Assembly (NCBI GenBank): GCA_963731735.1 | Contig: CAVSWO010000001.1 | Span: 64,761 to 128,760 of the forward strand | Origin: Candidatus Kerfeldbacteria bacterium | GTDB taxonomy: Bacteria; Patescibacteriota; Patescibacteriia; SBBC01; CAIJZX01 | DNA length: 64,000 nt | Direction: 5' to 3' | Made by a program: the position numbers and the translations under genes | Shown here: positions 4,895-54,305 of the stretch, in pieces | Position numbering within the stretch: position 1 is the stretch's first letter | Layout of the letters: each line of letters begins with the position of its first letter | Notes under the pieces: model-generated | What the model was told of the DNA's origin: nothing | What the model saw: only the letters and a program-made list of their open reading frames with translations | Database searches by the model: none

Positions 4895-6806
4895 AATGAA
4901 CGCGGCTTTCGATCTCTTCGGTAATCCAAAAACGCAAACCACCAATCTGGACCAACAACCGGATCTGCTTGACAGTGATCCGCGGTCCTCAATCAGGACT
5001 GAACAGAGTTTATCGACCGTCACCCAAAAACCTTGGTGGCGCTGGGTGTTTATCGGTATGACAGCGGTGGTGGTGCTGGTGGTAGGACGCTTAGTCCAGT
5101 TACAAACGGTTGAAGGCGCCACCTTGCGGGGTCGAGCGGAATACAACCGGTTGCGGATCCAATATTTAGCCGCGCCGCGGGGTTCAATCCTTGACCGGAA
5201 CGGGCAAACCCTGGCCACGAATGTGCCGAATTTCGCTTTGACCGTTGTGCCGAGCGATGTTCCGAGTACTGACGAGGCGTATCAAGCCTGGTTGAAAAAA
5301 CTTCAGCAGTTGATGCAATGGGACGACGCCAAACTGGCTGATGTCAAATCCAAAATCAAGGCCGGCGGAACGGATCCGGTGGTCATGCATGATCATTTAG
5401 GTTATGACCAAGCCTTGCCGTTGATGGTCCAAACAGCTGAACTACCCGGGGTGGCCATTCAATCGCTGCCGACGCGCCAATACCCGTTGGGACCGGCGGC
5501 CTCATCGGTGCTGGGCTATACGGGGATTGTCAATCAAACTGATCTCGACAGCCGTCAAAATTTGCACCCGCAGGATCGGGTCGGAAAAGCCGGATTAGAA
5601 CTGACCTACGACACCACCTTGTTTGGGACGCCGGGACGTCGGGAAATAGAGCGCGATGTCCGGAATCAGCGGATGGAAGTCCTGCACGAGCAAAATCCAA
5701 AACCCGGCCAATCATTACAACTCAGTATTGACGCCGGTTTACAGCAAGTTATGTACGATTCCTTGGCTCAAGCCGTCAAACAAGCCCACGGAACCGGTGG
5801 CGCCGCGGTGGCCATTAATCCGCAAACTGGCGCGGTTCTCGGGATGACCAGTTACCCCAGCTACGATGACAACTGGTTTGTGAATGGATCGTCAAACGAT
5901 CAGATCAGCCAGGTATTGCAAGATCCAGCCAACCCGCTCCTGGACCGGGCGATTGCCGGTGAATATCCGTCGGGTTCGATTATCAAGCCGTTGATTGCAT
6001 CCGCCGCCTTAGCCGAGAAGATAGTGACGCCGAATACCACCGTGCTGAGTACCGGCGGTATCACCATCGGTCATGACACGTTCCCGGACTGGAAAGCTGG
6101 GGGTCATGGAATCACGAATCTTTCCAAAGCGATTGCCGATTCCGTCAATACGTATTTTTATACCGTCGGTGGGGGATACAAAGATCAGCCGGGACTCGGG
6201 GTAGACCGGATTGTCAGCTATTTAGAAAAATTTAACTGGGGTTCACCACTGCAAATTGATCTGCCTGGCGAACGCGGCGGATTTTTACCCACCAAGCAAT
6301 GGCGAGAACAACAACGTCCTTCGCCCTGGCGACTGGGTGATACCTATCACTTGTCAATCGGACAAGGCGATTTATCCATTACCCCTCTTCAAGCGGTGAT
6401 GGGCATTGCGACGGTGGCGAACGGTGGAACCGTCTATCAGCCGCATGTGGTTCAGGCCGTCCTGAATCCAGATGGATCGGTAGCTAAAACGATTGCACCA
6501 AACGTCTTAGAAAAGGTAAATATTTCCCAGCAGGATTTCGCGGCTGTTCGAGCCGGATTGCGTCAGGGAGTAACGGACGGCAGTTCACGCGCATTACAGT
6601 CCTTACCGGTTACCTCCGGCGCAAAAACGGGAACCGCCCAATTTGGCAATCAAGGTAAAACCCATGCCTGGCACGTTGCTTTTGCGCCTTTTGATGACCC
6701 CCAAATCGCGATCGCCGTCATCATTGAAGCCGGCGGTGAAGGCAATGTGACAGCCTTACCGGTAACCAAAGCCGCTTTGAATTGGTATTTCAAGCCTACC
6801 CCCTAG
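4878..6806 (+). CDS. mrdA: penicillin-binding protein 2 (peptidoglycan D,D-transpeptidase)
   Basis: N-terminal transmembrane helix and dimerisation domain, an S-I-I-K (SxxK) active-site motif, and a KTGT motif. Located in the mreBCD operon. Confidence 0.88.
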   Translation: MINHSKMNAAFDLFGNPKTQTTNLDQQPDLLDSDPRSSIRTEQSLSTVTQKPWWRWVFIGMTAVVVLVVGRLVQLQTVEGATLRGRAEYNRLRIQYLAAPRGSILDRNGQTLATNVPNFALTVVPSDVPSTDEAYQAWLKKLQQLMQWDDAKLADVKSKIKAGGTDPVVMHDHLGYDQALPLMVQTAELPGVAIQSLPTRQYPLGPAASSVLGYTGIVNQTDLDSRQNLHPQDRVGKAGLELTYDTTLFGTPGRREIERDVRNQRMEVLHEQNPKPGQSLQLSIDAGLQQVMYDSLAQAVKQAHGTGGAAVAINPQTGAVLGMTSYPSYDDNWFVNGSSNDQISQVLQDPANPLLDRAIAGEYPSGSIIKPLIASAALAEKIVTPNTTVLSTGGITIGHDTFPDWKAGGHGITNLSKAIADSVNTYFYTVGGGYKDQPGLGVDRIVSYLEKFNWGSPLQIDLPGERGGFLPTKQWREQQRPSPWRLGDTYHLSIGQGDLSITPLQAVMGIATVANGGTVYQPHVVQAVLNPDGSVAKTIAPNVLEKVNISQQDFAAVRAGLRQGVTDGSSRALQSLPVTSGAKTGTAQFGNQGKTHAWHVAFAPFDDPQIAIAVIIEAGGEGNVTALPVTKAALNWYFKPTP

Positions 6807-6849: not shown

Positions 6850-7356
6850 ATGCCCGTTGCCGTACGGCTGCCTGATTTGACTATCTCTATGAACGACAAA
6901 GTAACCTATCTCACCAAAGATGGACTCGACAAACTCAAGGTCGAGTTAGATGAACTTGTGCGAGTTCGCCGCAAAGAAATTGCCGCCCGTATCCAAGAAG
7001 CCAAGGAATTAGGCGATTTGTCGGAAAATGCTGAGTACCAAGAAGCCAAAAATGAACAGGCTTTTAACGAGGGCCGGATTGAGGAATTAGAAAATACCAT
7101 CAATCACGCCGAATTGATTCCGGAAAATACCAAAGGATCCCGGACAGCCCGGGTCGGCTCAACCGTCAAAGCGACCCAAAACGGCCAACCAATCACATTT
7201 TCTATCGTCGGTTCGAATGAAGCCGATCCGTTGACCGGAAAAATTTCAAACGAATCTCCGCTTGGCCAAGCCCTGCTCGGGAAAGCGGTCGGTGAACAGG
7301 TTCGGGTGAACACGCCAAAAGGCGAAGCCACCTACCAGATAACCGAACTTTCCTAA
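6850..7356 (+). CDS. greA: transcription elongation factor GreA
   Basis: GreA coiled-coil and FKBP-like C-terminal domain (LTKDGLDKLKVELDELV..., DLSENAEYQEAK). AGGAGG lies 11 nt upstream of the ATG; the alternative Met at 6892 has no Shine-Dalgarno sequence. Confidence 0.85.
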   Translation: MPVAVRLPDLTISMNDKVTYLTKDGLDKLKVELDELVRVRRKEIAARIQEAKELGDLSENAEYQEAKNEQAFNEGRIEELENTINHAELIPENTKGSRTARVGSTVKATQNGQPITFSIVGSNEADPLTGKISNESPLGQALLGKAVGEQVRVNTPKGEATYQITELS

Positions 7357-7404: not shown

Positions 7405-8862
7405 ATGCCAAAGTCTGATCAAGAACAGATTCGCGCCCAACGGCGCCAGGATTTACTGGCAGCCCAGGTTGAACTTTATCCGGCCCGAACGCAGCGGTCC
7501 ACCCAAATTGAGCCCTTACGTACAGCATGGCAAGACGGTCAGACGCAAACCATCGCCGGCCGAGTCCGGGCCATCCGAATTCAAGGCGGTTCGGCCTTTA
7601 TCCGTCTCGAGGACGAAACGGGTCAGTTGCAAGTTTTTTTTCAAAAGAAAGAGTTAGCCGACTTTGCTCAGCTGGTCGAGAACCTCGACTTGGGTGATTT
7701 TCTCGAAGTCACTGGCAAAACTTTTATTACCAAACGGGGTGAACAAACGATCGACGCCACCCGTGTCCGGTGGTTAGCCAAGGCACTGCGGCCTCTGCCA
7801 TCAGCATGGCACGGCCTGGCTGATATCGAAACTCGCTACCGGTATCGCGAACTCGATTTACTTTCCAATCAAGCGGTTCGTAACATCTTTACGATTCGCG
7901 GAACCATCTTAACGACCATTCGTAATTTTTTAGTGAGCCGCGGGTTCCTTGAAGTCGAAACGCCGATATTGCATCCGATCGCCGGTGGCGCTACCGCCCA
8001 ACCTTTTGTGACGCATCACCAGGCACTGGATATTGATTTGTATCTGCGGGTCGCTCCGGAATTATATTTGAAGCGGCTCATTGTTGGGGGATTAGGCCGG
8101 GTGTTTGAAATCGGCCGGAATTTTAGAAACGAAGGGATCGATCGTGATCACAACCCTGAATTTACCATGATGGAATGTTATGCGGCTTTTACCGATTACA
8201 CCTGGATGATGGAATTGACGGAAGATTTATTCCTTGAAGTGGCACAAGCGGTGAATGGCAAACCGGAAATCTTGATCGGCGATCGAGTCATAAAACTTAA
8301 AAAACCATTTCAAAGGATTTCTTATCGTCAGGCCATTCAACATATGACCAAGATTGATATTGATAGCCTGGATGATACCCAACTCCGCAATCAAGGTCGC
8401 CAGGCGGGTACTGATCTGCCCGACACCATGAGCCGTCCAAAAATGATTGATGAGATTTTTAAAACGCATGTTCGACCAAATTTTATCGAACCCGGATTTG
8501 TCGTCGATTACCCGATTGAACTCTCACCGTTGGCCAAGAAAAAAGCCGACGATCCAAAGTATACGGAACGCTTTCAATTGCTGGCGGGCGGCACGGAACT
8601 CGGGAACGCTTTTAGCGAGTTAAATGATCCGGTTGATCAACAGCAGCGTTTCGCCGATCAGGAAAAACTTCGGACCCAGGGCGATAACGAAGCTCAGCGG
8701 GTTGATGCGGCCTACATCAAATCGTTGGAATATGGATTACCGCCAACCGGCGGATTAGGCATCGGAATCGATCGATTGACCGCTTTACTGACCAACCAAA
8801 AGAACTTGAAAGACGTGCTCTTGTTTCCAACCCTTAAACCGGAAAGTGATGACCAGGGATGA
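7405..8862 (+). CDS. lysS: lysyl-tRNA synthetase, class II
   Basis: FRNEGIDRDHNPEFTMMECY (motif 2) and a C-terminal GGLGIGIDRL (motif 3). Start chosen at MPKSDQEQ; the longer ORF from 7369 would add an implausible hydrophobic N-terminus. Confidence 0.88.
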   Translation: MPKSDQEQIRAQRRQDLLAAQVELYPARTQRSTQIEPLRTAWQDGQTQTIAGRVRAIRIQGGSAFIRLEDETGQLQVFFQKKELADFAQLVENLDLGDFLEVTGKTFITKRGEQTIDATRVRWLAKALRPLPSAWHGLADIETRYRYRELDLLSNQAVRNIFTIRGTILTTIRNFLVSRGFLEVETPILHPIAGGATAQPFVTHHQALDIDLYLRVAPELYLKRLIVGGLGRVFEIGRNFRNEGIDRDHNPEFTMMECYAAFTDYTWMMELTEDLFLEVAQAVNGKPEILIGDRVIKLKKPFQRISYRQAIQHMTKIDIDSLDDTQLRNQGRQAGTDLPDTMSRPKMIDEIFKTHVRPNFIEPGFVVDYPIELSPLAKKKADDPKYTERFQLLAGGTELGNAFSELNDPVDQQQRFADQEKLRTQGDNEAQRVDAAYIKSLEYGLPPTGGLGIGIDRLTALLTNQKNLKDVLLFPTLKPESDDQG

Positions 8863-9400
8863 AGCGGTAAAAATTTTGCATCATTACGTGCAAAATGAAA
8901 ATTTACGTCGGCACATGTACGCCACCGAGGCGGCCATGCGGATGTACGCCGATAAATATTCGGGAGATCCGGAGGAATGGGGATTGGTCGGCTTGCTCCA
9001 TGATTTTGATTGGGAAATCCATCCCAATCTGGACGACCATCCGACCAAAGGGCAAGCACTCTTGGAAGCCCAAGGTGTGCCGGAGCCAATTCGACGAGCG
9101 ATCATGGCCCATGCTCCGCATACCGGCATTCGGCCGCAGACCCAGATGGAAAAATGCATTTTTGCGGTCGACGAATTAAGCGGATTTATCGTCGCCTGTG
9201 CATTGGTAAGGCCGGAAAAAAAATTGGCGGCTGTGCAAGTTGCATCGATTAAAAAGAAATTGAAACAAAAAGCTTTTGCGGCCAATGTCAATCGGGAGGA
9301 GATTGCCCAGGGAGTTGGACTGCTTGATATTCCGGCCGACGAACATTATCAGAATGTCTTGCGCGCCATGCAATCAATTCATCAGGAGTTAGGACTATGA
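8846..9400 (+). CDS. HD/HDIG-domain metal-dependent phosphohydrolase
   Basis: H...HD metal-binding motifs (LLHDFD). Overlaps the lysS stop and the serS start. Confidence 0.65.
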   Translation: MMTRDEAVKILHHYVQNENLRRHMYATEAAMRMYADKYSGDPEEWGLVGLLHDFDWEIHPNLDDHPTKGQALLEAQGVPEPIRRAIMAHAPHTGIRPQTQMEKCIFAVDELSGFIVACALVRPEKKLAAVQVASIKKKLKQKAFAANVNREEIAQGVGLLDIPADEHYQNVLRAMQSIHQELGL

Positions 9401-39950: not shown

Positions 39951-41732
39951 CTAGCGCTTCAGGACAGCAAAATAGGCTGATTGCGGGATATCCACCCGTC
40001 CGTGTTGGCGCATCCGCTGTTTGCCCTTTTTTTGCTTTTCCAGCAGCTTGCGTTTTCGGGTGACATCCCCGCCATAGAGCTTGGCCGTCACGTCTTTCCG
40101 CATCGCCGGCAAGGTTTCACTGGCGATGATTTTTCCGCCAATCGCGGCTTGAATTTTGATCTCGAACATTTGCCGCGGTAAGAGTTTTTTGAGACGTTCC
40201 GTAATTGCCCGGCCGACCGAATAGCTGGCATCACGGTACACCATGGAAGCCAGCGAATCGATCGGTTCGCCGGCCACCAGCACATCCAGGCGTACCACGT
40301 CGGCCAGCTGGTAGCCATCCAGGCGGTAATGCACCGTCGCATACCCGGCGGTCACGCTTTTAATGGTATCGTAAAAATCAACTAAAATTGAGGCCAACGG
40401 CACGGAAAAATGCAGCACCGCCCGGTCGGCTTCAAGATATTCAATGGTGGTAAATTCCCCACGGTACCGTTGCAGTGTTTCCATCACCGGCCCGATTGAT
40501 CCGCTGGGCGTAATCACGTCGAGCGCGAGGAGCGGTTCCTCAATCCGATCCAAACTCGCCGGATCCGGCAAATCGAGTGGACTGCGGATGACAATCGGCT
40601 GCGATTGCCCACGCTGAAAAACATGGTAGGCCACCGAGGGCGTGGTCATCGTGACTGACACATGGTACTCGCGTTCGAGACGCTCCCGAACGATATCGAG
40701 ATGCAAAAGTCCAAGAAAGCCGCAACGAAACCCCGGACCCAAGGCCGGCGAATGTTCAGGTTCAAATTGGAGCGAGGCGTCGTTTAATTGGAGCCGTTCC
40801 AAAGCTTCGCGGAGATCAGCGTAGTTATCACCTTGTTCAGGAAAAATTCCGGCAAACACCATCGGTTGAATGTCGCGATAGCCGGGCAGGGCCTGGGTCT
40901 GGGCACCCTCAATCGTCACGGTATCACCGACCTTGGCTTGGGCGACAGTTTTCAGTCCGGTCACGATGTAACCAATTTGGCCGGTGGTGAGCGCGGGAAC
41001 AGCTTGGCGGCCGGGAGAAAATATTCCGACATCCAGCGCAGTCGTGCGAGCTCGCGTCCCTCGTAAGATTATTTTTTGGTTGGGCTGAACCTGACCGTCC
41101 ACCACCCGAATATAGGTGACGACCCCTTGATATTCATCATAGGTCGAATCAAATATCAGCGCCCGGAGCGGCTGGTCGGGTTGACCGCTGGGAGGCGGTA
41201 TCGCGGCGATAATCCGCTCGAGTATCTGGTCGATTCCCTGGCCGGTTTTACCGGAGGCTTCAAGCACCGCAGCCGGATCGATGGATAGCAACGAGGCGAC
41301 CTCGGCTTTGACTTTAACCGAATCAGCATTCGGTAAATCAACTTTATTGACAATCGGGATAATTACTAATTCTTCTTGTTTCGCTAAATCTAAATTGGCC
41401 AGTGTTTGAGCCTGGATGCCCTGAGTAGCGTCAACAATCAAGAGCGCGCCTTCAACCGCGGCCAGCGAGCGGGAAACTTCGTAGGCAAAGTCGACATGGC
41501 CCGGAGTATCGATCAAATTTAGTTCATAGCCCTGCCAATGCATCCGAACCGGCGCCAACTTGACCGTGATCCCGCGTTCTCGCTCAATATCCATCTGATC
41601 GAGTAATTGAGCCCGCATTTCACGTTTGGTGATGGTTTTGGTGTGCTCCAACAAACGATCGGCCAGGGTTGATTTGCCGTGGTCAATATGCGCGATGATC
41701 GAAAAATTTCTGATCCGACTGAGTGGCGTCAT
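39951..41732 (-). CDS. lepA: elongation factor 4 (LepA)
   Basis: G-domain AHIDHGKST and DTPGHVDF, plus the LepA-specific C-terminus. Confidence 0.92.
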   Translation of the reverse strand: MTPLSRIRNFSIIAHIDHGKSTLADRLLEHTKTITKREMRAQLLDQMDIERERGITVKLAPVRMHWQGYELNLIDTPGHVDFAYEVSRSLAAVEGALLIVDATQGIQAQTLANLDLAKQEELVIIPIVNKVDLPNADSVKVKAEVASLLSIDPAAVLEASGKTGQGIDQILERIIAAIPPPSGQPDQPLRALIFDSTYDEYQGVVTYIRVVDGQVQPNQKIILRGTRARTTALDVGIFSPGRQAVPALTTGQIGYIVTGLKTVAQAKVGDTVTIEGAQTQALPGYRDIQPMVFAGIFPEQGDNYADLREALERLQLNDASLQFEPEHSPALGPGFRCGFLGLLHLDIVRERLEREYHVSVTMTTPSVAYHVFQRGQSQPIVIRSPLDLPDPASLDRIEEPLLALDVITPSGSIGPVMETLQRYRGEFTTIEYLEADRAVLHFSVPLASILVDFYDTIKSVTAGYATVHYRLDGYQLADVVRLDVLVAGEPIDSLASMVYRDASYSVGRAITERLKKLLPRQMFEIKIQAAIGGKIIASETLPAMRKDVTAKLYGGDVTRKRKLLEKQKKGKQRMRQHGRVDIPQSAYFAVLKR

Positions 41733-43333
41733 GGATTGGCTGGTTTACTGCCGCGCCGGAGTTTTGCGAGTAAGCGATCAACTCCGTGCCGTATCAAATA
41801 GGCTTCATCTAAACGAAATAACGTGGCAAAAATGGTATAGCTCAAAACGCCGACGATCCCGGCGCCAACCGCTTGGGCCAGTACGCCAATCGCCCGCGAC
41901 AAATCGAGGCCGAAACTGACAAAGAATATTTTTGAGCCTTGCACCGCCACCGCCATCAAGATGGAGACACCGATAATTTTGAGTGTCGATTGGATTATCC
42001 GATCATCATCCAGCGAACCTAGCCGCCGATGGAGCGTCCAGGTTAATAAACCCGCGTTCACCACGCTGGAAATAGTATAGGCCACCGCCAAACCTTGAAC
42101 ACCCATAATTGGACTCAGTAAGACCGAGCCGGTAATCGCCAGGGCTACGGCAATCACGGTGTATTTGACCGGCGTCTTGGTGTCCTGCATCGCGTAGAAT
42201 GAGCGGGCCAGAACCGGAATCAACGACTGGGCAAAAAATGAGAGGGCAAAAAATCCCAAGGTTTGGGCGGTCGCGATGGTCTCCGCCCAGGTGACTTGAC
42301 CGGCGCCGATAATTACTCGAACGAATTGCGCGCGTAACTGCAGAAATAAGACCGTCAGCGGAATGATAATAAACAGAATCTGTCGGACAATCTGGGAAAA
42401 ATGTTGAATAAATTCCTTCCGTCGATTCTGTCCGAGCAGTTCGACAAAGACCGGAAACGCCACCGTCGCGATTGAAACACCGACGATACTAATCGGCACG
42501 TCCTGAATGTCATTCGCCCAGCGAAAAACCGAGAGATTCGATGGACCGAGACGGGTGGCGATCGGAATCGTGGCGAGTTGATTCAATTGGGTCACCGACT
42601 GTCCGATCGTGCGAGGTACCACGAGTTTTCCAATTTGCCGGACCCCTGGGTGCCGATACCCGGCACTTGGTCCGAACCGCCATCCGATCCGCCACGCCGC
42701 GATAAAGTTCGAAGACACGTGTAAGAAAGCTCCCACCACCGCTCCCCAGGCCACGCCGGCTTCACCCAGAAATGGCACCAACACAACAATCCCGAAAATT
42801 ATGCCTAGATTATTCAGCATCGGCGCCAGCGAAACCGCTAAGAAGTGGCGGAACGACTGTAAGACGCCGGCAAACACGTTGCTCATCGCGAACAACAGCA
42901 TGTTCATCGAAAGGATGCGGGTCAGCAGGATGGCGGTGTGCTGGGAATCCGCACCGAATTCACGCCCGACCAATAATTTCACAATCGGTCCGGCTCCGAA
43001 TAGCAGCGTGATTCCCAAAATGGTAAATAGCCAGACCAAAACATTCAAAATCGAACGAGAAATCCGCCAAGCCTCGTCCGGGTTTTTTTGCCGGTAAGCA
43101 ATAAAAACCGGCATAAAGGCCGTCAGCAATGAACCTAAAATCAGCGTCCCGTACAGGAAATCCGGAATCGCAAAAGCAGCGTAGATAGGATCCGCTCCCT
43201 CGGCCCCAAAGGTTGAAGCAATCAGGCGCTGGCGGATTAACCCCAGCCCCTTACTGATTATCCAACTCGATCCGACTAAGACCGCTCCTCCGACAATAGT
43301 GGTCTGGAGCTTCAGAAATATTTTCCGCCACAT
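41729..43333 (-). CDS. murJ: lipid II flippase MurJ (MviN)
   Basis: 534 aa with about 14 transmembrane helices and a MurJ-like N-terminus (LIRQRLIASTFGAEGADPIYAAFAIPDFLY). Confidence 0.85.
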   Translation of the reverse strand: MWRKIFLKLQTTIVGGAVLVGSSWIISKGLGLIRQRLIASTFGAEGADPIYAAFAIPDFLYGTLILGSLLTAFMPVFIAYRQKNPDEAWRISRSILNVLVWLFTILGITLLFGAGPIVKLLVGREFGADSQHTAILLTRILSMNMLLFAMSNVFAGVLQSFRHFLAVSLAPMLNNLGIIFGIVVLVPFLGEAGVAWGAVVGAFLHVSSNFIAAWRIGWRFGPSAGYRHPGVRQIGKLVVPRTIGQSVTQLNQLATIPIATRLGPSNLSVFRWANDIQDVPISIVGVSIATVAFPVFVELLGQNRRKEFIQHFSQIVRQILFIIIPLTVLFLQLRAQFVRVIIGAGQVTWAETIATAQTLGFFALSFFAQSLIPVLARSFYAMQDTKTPVKYTVIAVALAITGSVLLSPIMGVQGLAVAYTISSVVNAGLLTWTLHRRLGSLDDDRIIQSTLKIIGVSILMAVAVQGSKIFFVSFGLDLSRAIGVLAQAVGAGIVGVLSYTIFATLFRLDEAYLIRHGVDRLLAKLRRGSKPANP

Positions 43334-43554
43334 AGGTGTGGGCCGACTCTACCATTTTTTTTGCCTTTTCGCAACTCCAAATCCGGCCGAATCAGGAGCG
43401 GTCCCACGCTGCGGTATCAAACGGAGGAGACGTTTGGTCCTTCAGTGTTGGGACATCGCTGATTCGGCCAGATCTGGGCAGCCCGTTTGGTTGTGCTGTA
43501 AAAAAGTGTATGCCCTTCTCACCAATCCGCCAAATTTGACGACCAGGTGAGAAG

Positions 43555-43581
43555 GGAGAGCACTCAAAACGAGTGCTCTCC
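43555..43581. terminator. perfect 11-bp stem hairpin GGAGAGCACTC-aaaac-GAGTGCTCTCC, nested inside a second inverted repeat (cccttctcacc…ggtgagaaggg)
   Basis: Lies just 3' of the minus-strand small-gene cluster (stop at 43597). No U-run follows on either strand, so it is not a canonical intrinsic terminator. Confidence 0.35.
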
Positions 43582-43596
43582 ACGAAATGACCAATG

Positions 43597-43827
43597 TTAC
43601 CGTAAGGCTTGCCGGGCATCGTAGTGCGGCTGCCGCTCGAGCAGGACCGTAACCGGGCTGGCGGTCGGATCCGGAATGAAGTCGTTGAGTTCATCCAGTT
43701 CCGAAACCGTCAATCGAGCATACAGCACTTGCTGGAGTCGGAGCTTGTCCCGGAAAACGGAGACCACGGCCAGGCTGAGCACGATCACCATACCCAGCAA
43801 CATCCAGGTACTCCAGATCCAAATCAT
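43597..43827 (-). CDS. hypothetical small membrane-anchored protein (76 aa)
   Basis: GGAGGG about 4 nt upstream of the ATG. The ATG overlaps the upstream ORF's TGA (ATGA). N-terminal transmembrane helix MIWIWSTWMLLGMVIVLSLAVV. Confidence 0.5.
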   Translation of the reverse strand: MIWIWSTWMLLGMVIVLSLAVVSVFRDKLRLQQVLYARLTVSELDELNDFIPDPTASPVTVLLERQPHYDARQALR

Positions 43828-44041
43828 GGTCCCTCCATTGGGAACAGCAGTTGGGTACCGGCCAAAACCGTCAAACGTTCATCGTCGGACAGAAAGATGC
43901 AGGCTTCGACCGGACAGCGGTAAGACCGCCGCCGGTGCCAGGGCTCCAGTCGCTGCGTAACGCAGTGGGAGCCGGCCGGAATTGGCCGTTTGCACAGCCA
44001 ACAGACACAGCGCCGGGGGGCAATGACGGCCTCAGGCACGC
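43824..44041 (-). CDS. hypothetical Cys-rich (zinc-ribbon-like) small protein
   Basis: CVCWLCK…HC…CPVEAC. Frame open from just after the upstream TAG. No ATG, so a GTG near 44041 is possible, or an ATG at 44084 that would overlap the upstream gene. Confidence 0.35.
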
Positions 44042-44043
44042 GA

Positions 44044-44466
44044 CTACACGCACCACCCCTCGAACCAATCGACGATCTCGTCATCGAAGTCCTCGAATGC
44101 GTTCTGGAGATCCTCCGACTCATCCGCTCGGTCGTAGTCATCTGCCGTCATCTCCACTCGCGGATCGACCGCGAAATAGACTTCATTGAGCAGCCGCTGA
44201 TGCTCAGCATCCAGCCATTCCTGGATCTGTTCCGCCAAGCTCAGCTTGGACAGGGAGTCGATCTTTCGACGACGACTCATCCGTTCCTGGCGATCATCGA
44301 AATGCCGACGCCGCCAGCCGGTCGGGTGCAGCTGACGCTTGGCCAGTTGCGGTTGTCCATGGCGAACTTTCGCATCCACCGGGTGACATGAGATGACCGG
44401 AACAATCAGCGTCCAGAGTGGTTCAACACTGACCCGATCTTCCTTGGATGAATTGAGTCCTTGCAT
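44044..44466 (-). CDS. hypothetical protein with strongly acidic C-terminus (140 aa)
   Basis: AGGAGGGG lies 5 nt upstream of the ATG. C-terminus MTADDYDRADESEDLQNAFEDFDDEIVDWFEGWCV. Confidence 0.5.
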   Translation of the reverse strand: MQGLNSSKEDRVSVEPLWTLIVPVISCHPVDAKVRHGQPQLAKRQLHPTGWRRRHFDDRQERMSRRRKIDSLSKLSLAEQIQEWLDAEHQRLLNEVYFAVDPRVEMTADDYDRADESEDLQNAFEDFDDEIVDWFEGWCV

Positions 44467-44692
44467 CACATCCCCTCCTGGGTTGGTGATTGGTCAATTT
44501 TTGACAAGGTGCTTCCTCTCATGAGCGCCCGATGTGGAGGAACATCAGACGCTCGTGAGAGTGGGAGGACGAATTGTCGGAATTCGCCCTCCCTGGTTGT
44601 TGGTAGAAAGAACGTTAGGTAAACGGCTTCACGCGCATCACCACCTTTCTCCGCCCCGGAATCAGTCCGATGGGCGTGTGGAATTCGGTCGG

Positions 44693-45181
44693 CTAGGCCG
44701 CCCGCTGACGCTGCTTCCGCTGCCGCCGGTCCTGCTCCTTCGGCTTGGATGCCGACGACTGCTCGTCCTTGACCGGATAACGGCGACGCTTGCGCCGCTT
44801 GCCGCTGCGATGCTTCTCGGGACCGATGTAGATCGGCGTCGATACCATCCGTTCGGTCGGAACCGTCTGCTCAACTACTGTTTCGGACCGCAACCAAAGT
44901 TCATGGGCGTGGTCGTGCAGTTTGTCCCGCTCCTCCTCGATCCGGATCGACAGTCCCCGGATATCGATGTAGAGCTGGTTGATCCGATCCGTGGCCCAGG
45001 CAATACACCTGGTTTCGTAGACCGTAGGTTTGGGACCGCAGGACTGTACCCGGTTCGTGAGATTCATGATCTCGAACTCGCAGTCGGAACGCCGGCTGGT
45101 CAACTTCTCCAAGCATCGGACCGCCTTCTGCAGTCCGTCTTCATGAAACTGGATAGACAGGGGTGTGAAGACCGCGTTCAT
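44693..45181 (-). CDS. hypothetical protein with 4 Cys and an extremely basic C-terminal tail (162 aa)
   Basis: AGGAGG lies 6 nt upstream of the ATG. Tail …HRSGKRRKRRRYPVKDEQSSASKPKEQDRRQRKQRQRAA. Confidence 0.55.
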   Translation of the reverse strand: MNAVFTPLSIQFHEDGLQKAVRCLEKLTSRRSDCEFEIMNLTNRVQSCGPKPTVYETRCIAWATDRINQLYIDIRGLSIRIEEERDKLHDHAHELWLRSETVVEQTVPTERMVSTPIYIGPEKHRSGKRRKRRRYPVKDEQSSASKPKEQDRRQRKQRQRAA

Positions 45182-45279
45182 GGCAACCCTCCTGGTTGAG
45201 GTAGTCAACAGTTTTGAAAGATCTCCTCCCTTGAGCATTCCATCGTGAGCGGCTCACGCCATGCTTGATGAAATGCTCG

Positions 45280-45317
45280 AGGGAGGGTCAGGAGATGCGC
45301 GCAGTGCGTGCATCTCC
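45280..45317. promoter_or_regulatory. 13-bp perfect inverted repeat GGTCAGGAGATGC-(11 nt)-GCATCTCCTGACC
   Basis: In the intergenic gap between the stop of the 58-aa basic gene and the start of the 162-aa gene. Confidence 0.35.
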
Positions 45318-45330
45318 TGACCGGGGTACA

Positions 45331-45507
45331 TCACGGGCGACCGAAGAGCCGCTTCCAGAACGGCCGCCGACGCTGCTTGCGCCGCTTGGCCGGACGAACA
45401 CGATCTCCGCTGGTCCTGACGCGTTTCAGCTGCCGACGCTGCTTGGTGCTGGACAGCCAGCCCTTGGGATCAAGCGCCAATTGCAGATCTTTGAAAAATC
45501 CGGTCAT
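45331..45507 (-). CDS. hypothetical small protein with basic tail (58 aa)
   Basis: GGGGGA lies 5 nt upstream of the ATG. Sequence MTGFFKDLQLALDPKGWLSSTKQRRQLKRVRTSGDRVRPAKRRKQRRRPFWKRLFGRP. Confidence 0.5.
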   Translation of the reverse strand: MTGFFKDLQLALDPKGWLSSTKQRRQLKRVRTSGDRVRPAKRRKQRRRPFWKRLFGRP

Positions 45508-45700
45508 TGAATCCCCCGTCGTGCTAGGCACGGTAGAAGATGACATCGTGCAGCGAGACTCCCATTCCCTCACGAGCCATGGCCAACACATTCTTCGCGC
45601 GATTCGGTCCCATCCTGTACCTCCATGCGCTTGAGGTGTGAACGATGCTTCCCTGAGGCCAACCACATGTTGGCTGGAAGCGTTTGATGCTTCGCCTGCT

Positions 45701-46099
45701 TTACAGCTTCGGCCATGGGGTAAAACACCACAGCAGGAACAGAACGCCGATCGCCTTGGCCAACCCGGTTACCACCATGCGAACTTTGGTGTTCGCCTGA
45801 TCCAGGTCATACGCAAAAGATGAGTATTCTCCCTGCATGGTCTGGTTAACCTGGGTGGAAATCTGGCGCAATGATTGCAAGGTGTTGCCACAGTGTGTAG
45901 CCATTGAAAGGCCGATCAGTAGACCAAAAATCGCGAGTGCTCGGCCCATCCAAAGTTGATGGACGATGTGATTCACGATCCAGGCCGACCCAATCATCAA
46001 CATCGAGAAGATGAAGAGAACTGTGAAGGTGATCAATTCTTGCCGAAAGACTCGATATTGCGTCAGCAACGACCGAATAAAGATCTCCTTGGGATACAT
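45701..46099 (-). CDS. hypothetical 3-transmembrane membrane protein (133 aa)
   Basis: AAGGGG lies 6 nt upstream of the ATG, and hydrophobic helices are present. The conserved leader motif lies upstream. Confidence 0.5.
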   Translation of the reverse strand: MYPKEIFIRSLLTQYRVFRQELITFTVLFIFSMLMIGSAWIVNHIVHQLWMGRALAIFGLLIGLSMATHCGNTLQSLRQISTQVNQTMQGEYSSFAYDLDQANTKVRMVVTGLAKAIGVLFLLWCFTPWPKL

Positions 46100-46226
46100 G
46101 GTCAACCCCTTGTCAAGGTATACGGATTGAAAGGTTCAAATCTCTCTTGAGTATCCGATGTGGAGGAACATCAGATACTCGAGGGAAGCGGGGTTTTGAG
46201 AAGACCTCGCCAACCCCTTGGATTGC

Positions 46227-46457
46227 TCAGGCAGATTGCCGGTGACTTTGCTGTTCCAACCAGATGCGATTGTGGGAGCGGATAACCTCACGGATATCCT
46301 CACCCATCAAGTCACAGGCTGCCCGGAGCATCCGCACATCGGTGGTTTCGCCGTTCGTGAAATTGACGATGATGTGGTAAGCCTCGGTAACTTCGGATAC
46401 CGGCTGCGAAGCCTGATCCGAATTGATGCCAAACAGCATCTGCATGAAGCGCCACAT
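46227..46457 (-). CDS. hypothetical small protein (77 aa)
   Basis: AAGGAA lies 7 nt upstream of the ATG. Sequence MWRFMQMLFGINSDQ…. The upstream ORF-track extension has no start context. Confidence 0.45.
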   Translation of the reverse strand: MWRFMQMLFGINSDQASQPVSEVTEAYHIIVNFTNGETTDVRMLRAACDLMGEDIREVIRSHNRIWLEQQSHRQSA

Positions 46458-47305
46458 GGAATATTCCTTTCCGGGCGGCAAGGGGTATGATTGATGCAAG
46501 GAACACAGCAGGAGGCGAGCGAGACGCGATTTTGCCGAACCGAGGTCAGACGTATCGCGTGATGTCCGTGTGCCGAGGCTTTGAGAGTTAGACCCTCGTA
46601 GCCTGAAGCTCAGGACGGCCGGAATCAATCCATGCTTGAAAGCAAATTGACCGCCGGTGCTCTCCCCTCCTTGTGCATTCCGTGAAGGCAGGAAGTAAAG
46701 TTGTAAGATGCTCTCGGAACAACACGATGGCTTTGATCATCCGTCGATTCCTCCGATGGTAGGCAAGTAGAATGAACGTGGAATTTCGGAACATATCGGG
46801 AGGCAAGCGTACCGCGTTTATTCGCCCGAAGGTGAATGTCGCGGTGATGTTGACGCGGTCTGGCTTTGGAAGTCGAGACCTCCGAGGCTAGGCAACGAAA
46901 ACGGCTGGAATGGATCCATGCTTGTAGCGAATCCAGAACCAGTGCTCTCCCCTCCCCGTATGTTCCCCCGTCGCGGATACAACCGTGACCGACGGGGACT
47001 TCAATCCATAGGTTCCTGCGACTCAAGACACGCGGCCCGAAGCCGCAGAACCAACGGATTGAAATGAAAACAGGTGTGGTAGTTGAGGACAATGTCGACA
47101 ACACACCACACCCGTTTGCTTGGATATGAGAATATGTTTCGAACAACGTCTCCTCAACGCGTTCTTCCGAATAATTGTAGGGTGCGCTCGAAGCTGTCTC
47201 CTCTTCAGTTCTCAAGCGTAACGAAGCAGCATACAGCAGCCCTTTCAATATGTCAAGAGGGCGCTGGCGCTACCCTGTGCTATTTTGGCTAATCTTAGCT
47301 TAATT

Positions 47306-49444
47306 CTATTTTTCTACCAACGAAAATACCCGTGAAACTGATGAGTCTGTTTTCCAACTGACCGATTGTTTTTGCGACTGACCGCTGGTCGGTGAATAGG
47401 ACCGAATCGCACCCTTGGCCAACTTGGCCGTAACCTGCCAATCCCGGCTGGGCGCGCCCGGTTGTTTTTGCCAGGTCAGCGACCAATCGGTATCGGTTCG
47501 GGGGGTCGAAAACGTGAAGGTGAGCGTATCGGATTTTCCGGGCGCCAATAAACTCCAGGCCCCAAACACTTTACGGCCACTTTCTTCCGTTATCCGTAAG
47601 CCGCGATCCGGTTCCACTAGAATTTTGCCCTCGGCTTGGTCAAGTTTTTTCGAGCGCTGTGTCTCGTCAGCCGGCGTCATATAAAAACCAGCCGGTAACG
47701 TAGCGGCTCCGGATACGTTCTTGAAGGTGGCGCTGGCCGGTGCATAGACTCGGATAAAGTCCCGATTGGTTTGGCCCGTCAAAGGATCATCAGTCTGTCC
47801 GTGATGCTGACGGTGAACGGCGACGGTGTAATTGACGACGTCAGACTTTATATCGGCGGTAACGGCCACCGCGGTATCGATGACCCGATCCGTTTTTCCG
47901 CCACCCAAATTTGTATCAACCACCGCCAGACTATCCCCAGTTTTTGGGGTGACCAACGCCCCATCCCAGCCTAAGCGGGTAACCGCGTCTTGAACGGCGG
48001 TAGCTCGGCTGGTAATTAGAACGTTGGATTCGGCCGCCTGGGTCAGTGTAATGGCCACCGCCTGGAGGGCTTCCGGCGCCGTAAATTTCGTCATGGCTTT
48101 GAATAAAGCGGGAATCAGGTCCAGTAAAAATTCTTTGGGATTATTCAAGGCAATATCATAGCCAAATTCAACTTGCAGTTCCGTGGCCCGGACAAAATTA
48201 TCAGCCGTAATTTCCGTTTGGTAGCCCTGGGGAGTGATCGGCCCGGTCAACCGGAGTAGATCCTCGACCAGGGCGGGGGTTAGATAGATCACCCCCTGTG
48301 GTCGAAAGCCGCGCGCCTGTTCGTAAAAGTCTAGCAGAAAATCCGATGATGTCGGAACATCAAAAAACCAGTTGGCGTCATGGAAGGTCCAGTACGGCGC
48401 GACGGATAATATCGGTTCGGGCGGCAAGCTCGTATGCGGAATTTGAGCCGTCAAATCAAATGGCCCGGTCACCGGCGCATCCAATACCTTAAAGGTTCCC
48501 CGATCGAATTTGACCAATAAGAAGGTGCCGATAAATCCCCCGGTGGCCCGGAGTTCGTCATTGTTTTCAAAGACCACCAGATACTCTTGAGGTTTCGCCT
48601 GACCAAATAAGCCGGTCAATAAGGTTACCACGTCATGCAATCGGGTACTGCTCCCGATCAACGAAGCGTCAGCCAATTGCCAAGCGTGAAATTGTTCGCG
48701 ATAGGCGGCCGGAACGGCGCCGAGTTGAACTTGATGTAACGCATCGCGGGCGGCTTCAATATGGGCGATAACCGGCTCCAGCCGATCGGGCTGGGCCAGC
48801 AACGGCGTCAAAAAACCTAAATTGCCGGAAATGATCCCCTTAGTGTTTACCTGTGGCAAAGGATCGACCGGCGGCGCGGCCGCGATTAAATCGCTGGCCA
48901 AACGACCGGCTTCCGAGGCTTCCCGCCCGGCGCTCAAGAGGGCTTCAGCTGAGCGAACCCGACTGCCAGCCCACGGCACCGTCCGGACCACCGACAACGG
49001 GAGGCCGAAATCATGACGCAAGGTGGTCTCGGCGGTTTGTAATTCGTTGGCGGCCTGGCCAAATTTCTGGCCGGCGGTTTTGGGTTGATTTTGACTGAGG
49101 GCTTGACCGGCAGCCTGTAGCGTTTGGAGGGCCTGTTTGGCCTGATCCTGGACCCGTCCGACGGTGCCAGCCGCCTGGACAATTTTCCAGCCGCCCCAAA
49201 CGCAACCGGACACAACGCCCACTAACACGACAAACTTAGCGGTTTCTCGAAGAAAGCGAGTCCGGTCAAACCGTGAACGACTTGGGTTATGCGTTGGCGA
49301 TGCTGCGTGTTTGGTCCCCGACCAACGTGGAAATTTCCGGCGTGGCCGCTTTTCCTGACGGGCACGATCTTCCGCTACCTGACGGAGATCCAGGACATTA
49401 TTCGGTTGTGCGCTCACGGATGCCTCCAACTGATTGATAAACAC
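47306..49444 (-). CDS. large membrane-anchored hypothetical protein (DUF4012-like, polysaccharide-locus associated)
   Basis: 712 aa. Basic N-terminus, one transmembrane helix (FVVLVGVVSGCVWGGW), then a long extracytoplasmic domain. Its position next to GT4 and Wzz genes is typical for DUF4012 proteins. Confidence 0.5.
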   Translation of the reverse strand: MFINQLEASVSAQPNNVLDLRQVAEDRARQEKRPRRKFPRWSGTKHAASPTHNPSRSRFDRTRFLRETAKFVVLVGVVSGCVWGGWKIVQAAGTVGRVQDQAKQALQTLQAAGQALSQNQPKTAGQKFGQAANELQTAETTLRHDFGLPLSVVRTVPWAGSRVRSAEALLSAGREASEAGRLASDLIAAAPPVDPLPQVNTKGIISGNLGFLTPLLAQPDRLEPVIAHIEAARDALHQVQLGAVPAAYREQFHAWQLADASLIGSSTRLHDVVTLLTGLFGQAKPQEYLVVFENNDELRATGGFIGTFLLVKFDRGTFKVLDAPVTGPFDLTAQIPHTSLPPEPILSVAPYWTFHDANWFFDVPTSSDFLLDFYEQARGFRPQGVIYLTPALVEDLLRLTGPITPQGYQTEITADNFVRATELQVEFGYDIALNNPKEFLLDLIPALFKAMTKFTAPEALQAVAITLTQAAESNVLITSRATAVQDAVTRLGWDGALVTPKTGDSLAVVDTNLGGGKTDRVIDTAVAVTADIKSDVVNYTVAVHRQHHGQTDDPLTGQTNRDFIRVYAPASATFKNVSGAATLPAGFYMTPADETQRSKKLDQAEGKILVEPDRGLRITEESGRKVFGAWSLLAPGKSDTLTFTFSTPRTDTDWSLTWQKQPGAPSRDWQVTAKLAKGAIRSYSPTSGQSQKQSVSWKTDSSVSRVFSLVEK

Positions 49445-53659: not shown

Positions 53660-54305
53660 GCCCGGCTTCAGACCACCGATAAGCCGAATTCTGTCAACCT
53701 CCGCCGGAGGCTACGGTTGACAAGTTCCCTTTCCGGGGATGCTTGCCGGCCGAAGTCTCCGACGCAGGCCGGATGATCATCTCTCTTGGACGGACATTGC
53801 TGCCCGCCTCATGCGATCTACCCGCCCCGCACACCGAGCTGGTGTGGGAGCCTATGCGATCTTGCACCGGAGAGGGTTTACCCGTCCCGATAGTCACCTA
53901 TCGGGACCGTGGGCTCTTACTTTACCCGCCGAAGCGAGGTATCCCTCACGATGGAGGGCCCACGATTTCACCCTTACTTGAGTCTTGCCCTTGGGTTGGC
54001 ATCTCAGCTGTGACTGCCGGTCAGAGACCCGCAGACTGGCCAGTGTGATGCTCCAAGGTGAAGTGCCTGAATAATTCAGACGAAGCAATTCCCGAGCGGT
54101 ATGTTTCTGTTGCACTAATCCCTAGGCTTGGCCCCCACGCCAATACACACGCGCCGGTGTGCATTGGTGTGGGGGTTACTCCCGGTTGCCGTTAGCAACT
54201 CTCCTTGACCCTGCATGTCTGCAGGAGGTGTTCGGACTTTCCTCCCACCGAAACGCACTTGCGTGCACACCGGCGGGCGATCATCTGGTGGTCTGAAAAG
54301 GGCTG
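53660..54305 (-). ncRNA. rnpB: RNase P RNA, bacterial type A, with large insertions (about 645 nt)
   Basis: Minus-strand matches to universally conserved M1 RNA blocks: GGAAAGUCCGAACACC (P4 5'), GUGCAACAGAAACAUACCGC, CAAGUAAGGGUGAAA, GUAAAGUAAGAGCCCACGG, GGGUAAACCCUCUCCGGUGCAAG, ACAGAAUUCGGCUUAUCGGUGGUCUG (P4 3'/P1). P1 pairs CAGACCACC with GGUGGUCUG. Ends are approximate. Confidence 0.75.

Follow-up and report, generated by a model that had tools for sequence, protein, structure and literature searches.

The interval between murJ and a DUF4012 gene in the Candidatus Kerfeldbacteria DNA analysed here (positions 43334-47305, about 4 kb, of a stretch of 64,000 nucleotides, referred to below as the window) holds four structured RNA elements, designated A, B, H and M, and seven small open reading frames (ORFs). 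For these elements folding, covariation and strand specificity are demonstrated, and they are found at this locus only; a promoter and a terminator are conserved together with them, and the proteins are not. The locus is read, with about an even chance of being right, as a clade-specific operon of fast-diverging small membrane and charged proteins that is controlled in cis by A, B, H and M; co-transcription of the small genes and regulatory roles of the four elements are inferred. What is new here is chiefly the four structured RNA families, which form the scaffold of a hypervariable small-protein locus in a clade of the Candidate Phyla Radiation (CPR).

Position and conservation of the interval

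Complete DUF4012-murJ intervals were obtained from ten relatives (L002, L003, L004, L082, L083, L085, L086, L087, L088 and L089), the MurJ proteins of which are 53-76% identical to that of the window; partial intervals only were available from L005, L084, L100 and L101. The closest genome by MurJ was JACPSJ010000001 (76% identity; Candidatus Kerfeldbacteria, CPR/Patescibacteria). The gene order was the same in all ten complete loci, with DUF4012 followed by 3.1-6.6 kb of small genes without Pfam assignment and then by murJ-lepA, and bPH_2 and DivIC come after lepA wherever the contig reaches that far. In four other CPR loci (L006, L007, L008 and L014) the gap between DUF4012 and murJ measures merely 160-560 nt. 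Since it is present in ten of ten relatives, and since DUF4012 and murJ are adjacent in other CPR bacteria, the interval is regarded as a clade-specific insertion that is core rather than accessory within the clade.

The initial annotation had proposed an accessory island, to be reclassified as a lineage core cluster should the identical interval be found in all relatives. By its position and its scaffold the interval belongs to the core of the lineage, because it occupies the same position in every one of the ten relatives, because promoter, leader and RNA elements are kept, because its GC content tracks that of the host genome, and because no integrase, tRNA or phage-like gene lies nearby. 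The term "accessory" was therefore dropped. Identity extends to position and RNA scaffold but not to the protein content, which differs between relatives and can barely be aligned. The suggested comparison of GC content with the flanks gave a difference (0.555 for the island versus 0.538 for the window, and 2-8 points above the flanks in nine of the ten relatives), and the value follows the host in each case. RNA structure, expression level and biased gene conversion are candidate causes of the raised GC content of the interval and of its third codon positions (GC3). The earlier statement that neither an integrase nor a flanking tRNA is present was borne out: the nearest tRNA is about 5.5 kb away, and, according to the Pfam gene tables, no Phage_integrase occurs among the window ORFs or within 10 kb of the interval in the seven informative relatives. 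No att-like or flanking direct repeats were found around the island.

When the interval of the window was compared with those of the relatives by sensitive blastn, matches were returned at 47311-47000, 46965-46860 and 46675-46500, at the three leader hairpins, and at 43476-43381. Inside the ORFs a single weak match was obtained (28 nt in o134, E = 0.21). Conservation of the DNA is thus essentially limited to the four RNA elements and does not extend to the proteins. Contig L001, from a near-identical strain, differs from the window by one single-nucleotide polymorphism over 3.2 kb and is for this reason uninformative on selection. The metagenomic contigs L001, L005, L084, L100 and L101, all of which carry murJ, end within or beside the interval; this could be due to strain-level heterogeneity or to repeat-induced assembly breaks.

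Structured RNA elements from promoter to murJ

The positions of all features are collated in Table 1. The promoter that precedes leader RNA A is the sole good minus-strand promoter match in the island, and its cores TTGAC and TAT..T are invariant in 11 loci. The palindrome upstream of it belongs to a family with the consensus TGGCTAA-NN-TTAGCCA, in which all 11 loci keep TTAGCC unchanged or nearly so (alignment A4); the site is duplicated in L004, L082 and L089. It is a candidate operator for a dimeric DNA-binding regulator. Transcription would start near 47222. In leader A, two hairpins with GAGGAG loops are followed by a conserved single-stranded CCNUACAAUU and then by a long hairpin with a U-run behind it (intrinsic terminator). 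With the exception of L086, all loci have a hairpin with a T-run at the same place, including L082 and L087, the stem sequences of which are unrelated, and the fold z-scores of A were -4.9 in the window and -6.7 in L004. The terminator is conserved behind A, and no conserved anti-terminator was identified. A could be an attenuator or a riboswitch-like leader, or else a separate small RNA (sRNA) of about 160 nt. An assignment to signal recognition particle RNA, 6S RNA or tmRNA was discarded, as neither Rfam nor ARAGORN gave a match.

Table 1. Features of the murJ-DUF4012 interval and its borders, in the order of transcription (dG in kcal/mol; aa, amino acids; TM, transmembrane; CM, covariance model)
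Feature	Position	Strand	Remarks
DUF4012 gene	47306-49444	minus	Pfam E = 3e-23
Palindrome AGCTAAGATTAGCC	47287..47300	minus	just past DUF4012 stop, ~30 nt 5' of -35 hexamer
Sigma-70-like promoter TTGACA-17 nt-TATGCT	47228..47256	minus	10/12 consensus positions
Leader RNA A, ~160 nt	47062..47222	minus	alignments A4, A6
Post-terminator hairpin GGUUCUGCGG...CCGCAGGAACC with inner GC hairpin	47002..47060	minus	kept in 8/11 loci; present in window and L004 folds
B1, first copy	46786..46968	minus	CM R1 158 bits; folds alone to family architecture, z = -3.0
B2, second tandem copy	46498..46683	minus	CM R1 153 bits; z = -4.7; ends 40 nt 5' of o77
o77	46227-46457	minus	76 aa, soluble; ATG at 46457
H1, loop GUUCCUCCAC	46142..46187	minus	dG -21; ends 36 nt 5' of o134
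o134	45701-46105	minus	134 aa, 3 predicted TM segments
o58	45331-45507	minus	58 aa, pI 12, Arg/Lys-rich
GC-rich hairpin (45286-45322) directly before H2 (45226-45285)	45226..45322	minus	dG -35.5
o162	44693-45181	minus	162 aa, Lys/Arg-rich tail
Hairpin (44563-44593) directly before H3 (44516-44561, loop GUUCCUCCAC)	44516..44593	minus	dG -30.2
o140	44044-44466	minus	140 aa, acidic C-terminal tail
Zn-ribbon-like Cys-rich ORF (CxxC...CPxxxC)	43824-44084/44141	minus	86-105 aa
o76	43597-43827	minus	76 aa, N-terminal TM segment (1 TM)
Two adjacent hairpins, second followed by TTTTTT	43500..43581	minus	probable terminator
Element M, ~100-nt imperfect hairpin	43377..43477	minus	unpaired CUCCUCC near tip
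Putative murJ promoter TTGCGA-17 nt-TGGTAGAGT (extended -10)	43346..43374	minus	conserved in 13 loci (alignment A5)
murJ	41729-43333	minus	

Element B is an RNA of about 180 nt that is present in the window as two tandem copies. Its closing helix P1 is formed by AGGAGGGGAG and CUYGCCUCCY, and is followed by P2 with the loop CAAGCAUGG, by P3 with a tetraloop at the tip, and by P4. Six copies from four genomes were folded singly, and each gave the same four-way junction (z from -3.0 to -6.4). In a nine-sequence alignment 92% of the cells were paired, as compared with 39-48% with slid partners, and 33 of the 49 pairs were changed on both sides (8-15 when slid); these pairing values were reached by none of 500 shuffles. 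The invariant G-U pairs identify the gene-sense strand as the folded one. With CM R1, B was detected in every interval, including five strong copies outside the seed. The top score was always obtained on the sense strand, the reverse-strand echoes at the same sites being far weaker, and no match was returned elsewhere in 431 kb, in which the remainder of the window and seven further CPR loci were included.

Where a gene follows, B lies 37-150 nt 5' of a start codon led by a Shine-Dalgarno (SD) sequence, in most cases a strong GGAGG. The closing helix of B itself pairs an SD-like GGAGG with an anti-SD-like CCUCC, and a pairing of the CCUCC with the downstream SD is a possibility. A strict pattern derived from B found no match in IMG/VR or in JGI metagenome contigs, a collection evidently without those JGI contigs that bear true copies, so that little is said thereby on the distribution of B. 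Ten metagenome loci retrieved with a looser pattern were rejected as chance matches (R1 at most 17 bits, no DUF4012 or MurJ nearby). Two further assignments of B were also rejected. Reading frames that begin at the AUG of the CAAGCAUGG loop range from 2 to more than 60 codons, and none is conserved as would be expected of a peptide-coding element; and the tip of P3, considered as a tRNA-like or T-loop-bearing structure, varies among UUCG, GCAA, CUCG and CUAA tetraloops.

The hairpins of family H have the form 5'-CUCNCUCGAG-(variable stem-loop, 18-60 nt)-YUCAAGNGAG-3', and all three copies in the 64-kb window are located within the island. H2 ends 44 nt 5' of o162 and carries CAUCAAGCAUGG in its top, and H3 ends 49 nt 5' of o140. 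The stems of H1 and H3 differ by compensatory changes, and their common loop GUUCCUCCAC was also seen in copies from L002 and L082; the loops of some H copies are CCUCC. Searches with the paired H motif gave 42 matches (both strands, about 22 hairpins) in 54 kb of intervals, versus six chance matches, not hairpin-like, in 1.38 Mb outside them. The spacing from H to the downstream start is 37-60 nt for most copies in the relatives and is tied to this start rather than to the upstream stop. A C-A mismatch is found at the same stem position of the sense strand in nearly every copy, with the exception of L002 6439. Another hairpin usually stands immediately before H. In L002 (~6398-6438), L004 (~8885-8922), L082 (~7880-7912 and ~8295-8321) and L086 (~5680-5715, ~6905-6936 and ~7775-7807) this hairpin, found before many H copies, is composed of a purine-rich arm, the conserved loop GGAUAGCCACAUC and a pyrimidine-rich arm; in the window its place before H is held by unrelated hairpins.

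At the 3' end of the interval, the two adjacent hairpins at 43500..43581 are, from their sequence, the probable terminator of the small-gene transcript. Element M follows, just 5' of the putative promoter of murJ. In M, 24 of the 39 pairs are compensatory. Of the 15 Kerfeldbacteria loci searched with CM R2, 13 gave exactly one sense-strand copy each, and four of these had not been part of the seed; no M was found in L087, in L089 or in other CPR loci. murJ appears to have a promoter of its own here. The murJ ATG lies about 12 nt past the -10 hexamer with no SD between (43331-43374), and the mRNA would be nearly leaderless. Kissing of A with M or with H through GAGGAG:CUCCUC was considered and rejected, as the duplex energies were within about 1.4 standard deviations (sd) of those of shuffles.

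None of the four elements had a match at or near the gathering threshold among the 4227 families of Rfam 15. In a gathering scan of the window only RNase P and three tRNAs were found, and scans by E-value, run on the island and on the intervals of L082 and L086, gave matches at chance level only (ar14 with 24 bits versus a threshold of 59, and miRNA/snoRNA noise). The full-text literature on Kerfeldbacteria and on structured RNAs of Patescibacteria was searched as well, and no description of A, B, H or M was found. The RNase P RNA of the window (53664-54296, minus strand; bacterial class A, 176 bits) is itself enlarged, with 633 nt versus 367 model positions; its several large expansions include one hairpin with about 100 nt more, two further hairpins with about 50 nt, and a segment of about 60 nt towards the 3' end.

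Several of these elements had been listed by the initial annotation as non-coding repeats. The repeats are real: the 45-nt leader motif occurs in two exact copies, the identical 20-nt core of which was absent from 100 of 100 shuffles, and belongs to family H; the direct repeats, 285-286 nt apart, are B1 and B2; the 13-bp palindrome is located in the top of H2; and the nested terminal hairpin corresponds to the hairpin pair before M. What had been missed is that these repeats are the best conserved part of the stretch, and the functional part with the best support, and represent structured RNAs with strong covariation. The claim that the stretch represents something undescribed is upheld here, the repeats and hairpins being real and the stretch being the least explained part of the window.

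Small open reading frames and their products

The seven minus-strand ORFs were confirmed at the places given to them, each with a purine-rich SD-like stretch 4-8 nt 5' of it. The last three (o140, the Zn-ribbon ORF and o76) are joined by stop/start overlaps, the start of o76 overlapping the stop of the Zn-ribbon ORF (ATGA). The length of the Zn-ribbon ORF is 86 aa as called in L001 and 105 aa in the longest frame. Codon usage was scored as a log-likelihood trained on 36 long ORFs of the window, for which genes gave 0.18 +/- 0.08 per codon and wrong frames -0.245 +/- 0.12. On this scale o76 (0.25), o140 (0.14) and o134 (0.12) are gene-like, o77 (0.06) and o162 (0.00) are borderline, and o58 (-0.05) and the Zn-ribbon ORF (-0.14 for the 86-aa frame, -0.19 for the 105-aa frame) are poor. 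The GC3 values of the seven ORFs (0.65-0.77) are 2-4.7 sd higher than those of core genes (0.567 +/- 0.044). Six of the ORFs are probably genes, and o58 is the weakest of the seven calls. The stretch of about 0.85 kb that had been described as apparently non-coding is spanned by an ORF of 207 aa with a poor codon score (-0.16), and we take it to be non-coding. A plus-strand ORF of 221 aa (44534-45199), antisense to o162, has a near-neutral score (0.014) and is probably a by-product of the GC-rich sequence.

Significant homologues in the related intervals were found for just two of the seven ORFs. The Zn-ribbon ORF has a homologue in L085 (8141-8356, E = 5.4e-10) and is also related to L082 8641-8835 and L100 1505-1699; o77 has homologues in the intervals of L082 (E = 4.8e-10) and L002 (2.5e-5). 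The best match of o162 in the relatives is weak (L089, E = 0.004). No significant alignment with the relatives' intervals was obtained for o58, the C-terminus of which (RRRPFWKRLFG) resembles, by eye, basic peptides of 38-40 aa in L082 (7739-7855) and L085 (7539-7661). In agreement with the earlier remark that no family could be assigned, none of the seven ORFs matched Pfam, PHROGs, NCBIfam or PADLOC, and the relatives' proteins likewise gave little beyond coiled-coil noise. A word-index search of 5.8 billion proteins with o162 and o140 retrieved only these proteins themselves, as did a full HMMER search of 1.84 billion representatives with o140. Structure prediction, which had been recommended as a check, led to no known family either. 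The AlphaFold2 model of o162 (predicted local distance difference test score, pLDDT, 75) consists of two long helices forming a helical hairpin and of a disordered basic tail, and its comparison with the PDB by Foldseek gave generic helical hairpin and coiled-coil matches only, none at E <= 0.001; the model of o140 was too poor for use (pLDDT 49).

Certain kinds of protein nevertheless recur. Across 11 intervals at least one TM segment was predicted in 40 of 82 small proteins. The recurring kinds are multi-TM proteins of 60-150 aa; coiled-coil proteins, mostly of 130-180 aa (about 70 aa in L004 and L083) and usually with a Lys/Arg-rich tail; basic peptides of about 40-60 aa; and acidic proteins. 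A recurring pair consists of a Zn-ribbon protein and, after it, a protein that has its TM segment at the N-terminus; the pair adjoins murJ in the window and in L100 and is near the murJ end in L082 and L085. The order of the units is not fixed, as o77 and the coiled-coil gene, which follow each other in this order in the window, are reversed in L082. Recognisable genes are occasionally present in the relatives' intervals: stand-alone receiver-domain proteins (L086 7042-7428, L088 4451-4807), an AAA_33/polynucleotide-kinase-like protein with PHROG matches (L085 8839-9324), a membrane protein with collagen triple-helix repeats (L002 8885-9496) and a type IV pilin (L004 7910-8314; TIGR02532, E = 9e-8). 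The last of these was also the only protein in the relatives with the prepilin motif GFxxxE of a type IV pilin cluster, and none of the window ORFs carries this motif.

Explanations of the locus and known systems

In the proposed mechanism, the one conserved promoter would drive an operon of small, very fast-diverging proteins, about half of them membrane-anchored and the rest comprising a basic-tailed coiled-coil protein, a small basic peptide, an acidic protein and a Zn-ribbon protein. Leader A with its terminator would decide on read-through by attenuation, in a riboswitch-like manner or depending on a protein. B would act in cis on the downstream unit, its GGAGG/CCUCC closing helix being placed 5' of the start codon, and H, standing before the first gene of each translational unit, may serve as an SD-masking, processing or stability signal. 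For B and H alike, the mechanism might be masking and unmasking of the SD, or endonucleolytic processing with stabilisation as at T7 RNase III sites. M would close the transcript ahead of murJ's own promoter. The neighbouring genes (polysaccharide genes, murJ, DivIC, a penicillin-binding protein (PBP) and FtsEX) and the frequency of TM segments suggest an envelope or surface role of proteins under diversifying pressure, which would fit an episymbiotic lifestyle.

Several observations weigh against an operon controlled in this way. Hairpins stand between the units, one of them with a T-run, and several transcripts are therefore possible. The genes after B and H are mutually unrelated; this is not what is usually seen with riboswitch-type elements, and it would agree just as well with a generic role in punctuation or recombination. 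The GGAGG/CCUCC complementarity is trivial where the SD is GGAGG. The C-A mismatch of H is a G-U pair on the antisense strand, and the folding energies of the two strands are similar, so that the functional strand of H is not singled out. Finally, the complementarity between A and M covers 11 contiguous bases in the window, and this extension is not conserved in the relatives.

There is a small chance that the locus represents an undescribed genetic system, in which H and B would be the recombination sites of an integron-like platform without integrase in CPR bacteria, or in which A, B, H and M would be RNA punctuation or regulation recognised by the Arg-rich or Zn-ribbon proteins of the locus itself. 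The latter option, if true, would resemble N/nut antitermination or a dedicated endoribonuclease, and either option would lead to rapid turnover and controlled expression of small proteins. CPR bacteria (Patescibacteria) make up a large share of bacterial diversity, and their regulatory RNAs and small ORFan proteins are barely known. The locus provides four covariation-supported RNA motifs without Rfam counterpart, tied to a promoter and a terminator and situated beside cell-envelope genes. It makes testable how a variable repertoire of small proteins is controlled in an episymbiont-type bacterium, whether A and B serve as riboswitch-like sensors or as signals for processing, and whether new genes originate or are exchanged between conserved RNA punctuation marks.

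That the RNAs are the function, with A as an sRNA, B and M acting in trans or binding protein, and most ORFs young, weakly selected or incidental to a GC-rich structured region, is considered unlikely. Conservation is indeed restricted to the RNA parts, A has its own promoter and terminator, codon usage is not gene-like in two of the seven ORFs, five of the seven are without significant homologue even in sister genomes, and the two that were tested (o162 and o140) are singletons among billions of proteins. These points are opposed by the properly spaced SD before every ORF, by a GC3 far above the GC content of the first and second codon positions, as is typical of translated frames, by the translational coupling through the ATGA overlap, by the significant conservation of the Zn-ribbon and o77 families, and by the recurrence of the same protein kinds in most intervals. 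That an old mobile element (a small phage, a satellite or a plasmid) once integrated here and was domesticated, the interval being its remnant, is highly improbable: no integrase, replication, packaging or structural gene is present, no tRNA or att-like direct repeat was seen, the B-derived pattern is unmatched in IMG/VR, significant PHROG matches were obtained neither for the window ORFs nor for nine of the ten larger proteins tested from the relatives, and the interval occurs in all ten relatives that span the gap with a GC content tracking each host. Such an origin would account for the absence of the interval from other CPR lineages, where DUF4012 abuts murJ, for the small co-oriented ORFan genes with GC content above the flanks, and for the kinase-like gene with PHROG matches in one relative (L085), which is the exception among the ten proteins.

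A quite unlikely explanation is an integron-like cassette array, in which H, and perhaps B, would be attC-like folded recombination sites and a recombinase encoded elsewhere would shuffle promoterless cassettes behind the fixed promoter; if true, the locus would represent a new type of recombination platform. In its favour, conserved structured elements alternate with non-conserved genes, and the co-oriented, promoterless and variable ORFs behind one conserved promoter correspond to what is seen in integrons and in clusters of attC sites lacking integrases (CALINs). H is formally attC-like (conserved stem base, variable top of 18-60 nt, conserved mismatch), the order of units varies between the window and L082 with respect to o77 and the coiled-coil gene, and the five contigs that break in or beside the interval are what would be expected if strains differ there. 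However, no tyrosine recombinase lies within 10 kb at any locus examined with the Pfam gene tables, the attC core RYYYAAC/GTTRRRY is absent from all H copies, which end CUCNCUCGAG...YUCAAGNGAG, and the distance of H is fixed to the downstream start and not to the upstream stop. The G-U pairs in the stems of B, M and upper H point to RNA rather than to single-stranded DNA, some gene pairs are syntenic across genomes (such as the Zn-ribbon gene followed by the TM-protein gene beside murJ), and no identical cassette was seen in two contexts. An array of type I toxin-antitoxin-like or toxic small membrane peptides, held off translation by structured 5' untranslated regions (UTRs) with anti-SD hairpins, is very unlikely. 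Small TM peptides are frequent among the products, CCUCC is present in loops and helices 5' of the SDs, and conserved UTR structure with variable peptides is typical of type I loci such as hok/sok and aapA/isoA; but half of the proteins are soluble and of 100-200 aa, the elements are found at a single chromosomal site and are not dispersed, and no convincing antisense promoter was detected, the one weak plus-strand match (9/12) lying inside o134.

Compared with known systems, the locus shares with type I toxin-antitoxin loci (hok/sok, aapA/isoA) the small membrane peptides behind structured leaders with anti-SD CCUCC, and differs from them in that no antisense RNA gene was detected, in its many larger soluble products and in its being, probably, a single syntenic operon. 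With integron attC arrays and CALINs it has in common a promoter at one end, co-oriented small ORFan genes, conserved imperfect hairpins with a variable top between them, and a content that varies at a fixed chromosomal site; unlike in these arrays, there is no IntI, the hairpins lack the attC core and track the downstream start codon, the pairing patterns suggest RNA, and the gene order is partly syntenic. The RNase III hairpins of the T7 early mRNA and the repetitive extragenic palindromes (REPs) and bacterial interspersed mosaic elements (BIMEs) are similar hairpins with an internal mismatch, by which a message of small, fast-evolving genes is punctuated, and H could likewise set differential mRNA stability. 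In contrast to REP and BIME sequences, which are dispersed over genomes, H is confined to the interval within the window and 1.38 Mb of other sequence, that is, to one locus, and no REP-associated tyrosine transposase (RAYT) was seen. Riboswitches and attenuation leaders differ from A and B with regard to the genes downstream, which here encode unrelated small proteins without a metabolic theme; moreover, neither A nor B is in Rfam, and B has no obvious expression platform after it. Both nevertheless show a conserved, covarying structure in a putative 5' UTR: A resembles such leaders in its conserved promoter, its conserved structured leader of about 100 nt and its conserved intrinsic terminator, and B resembles riboswitches in being a covarying multi-helix junction in 5' UTRs that holds an anti-SD in its closing helix and that, like some riboswitches, occurs in tandem.

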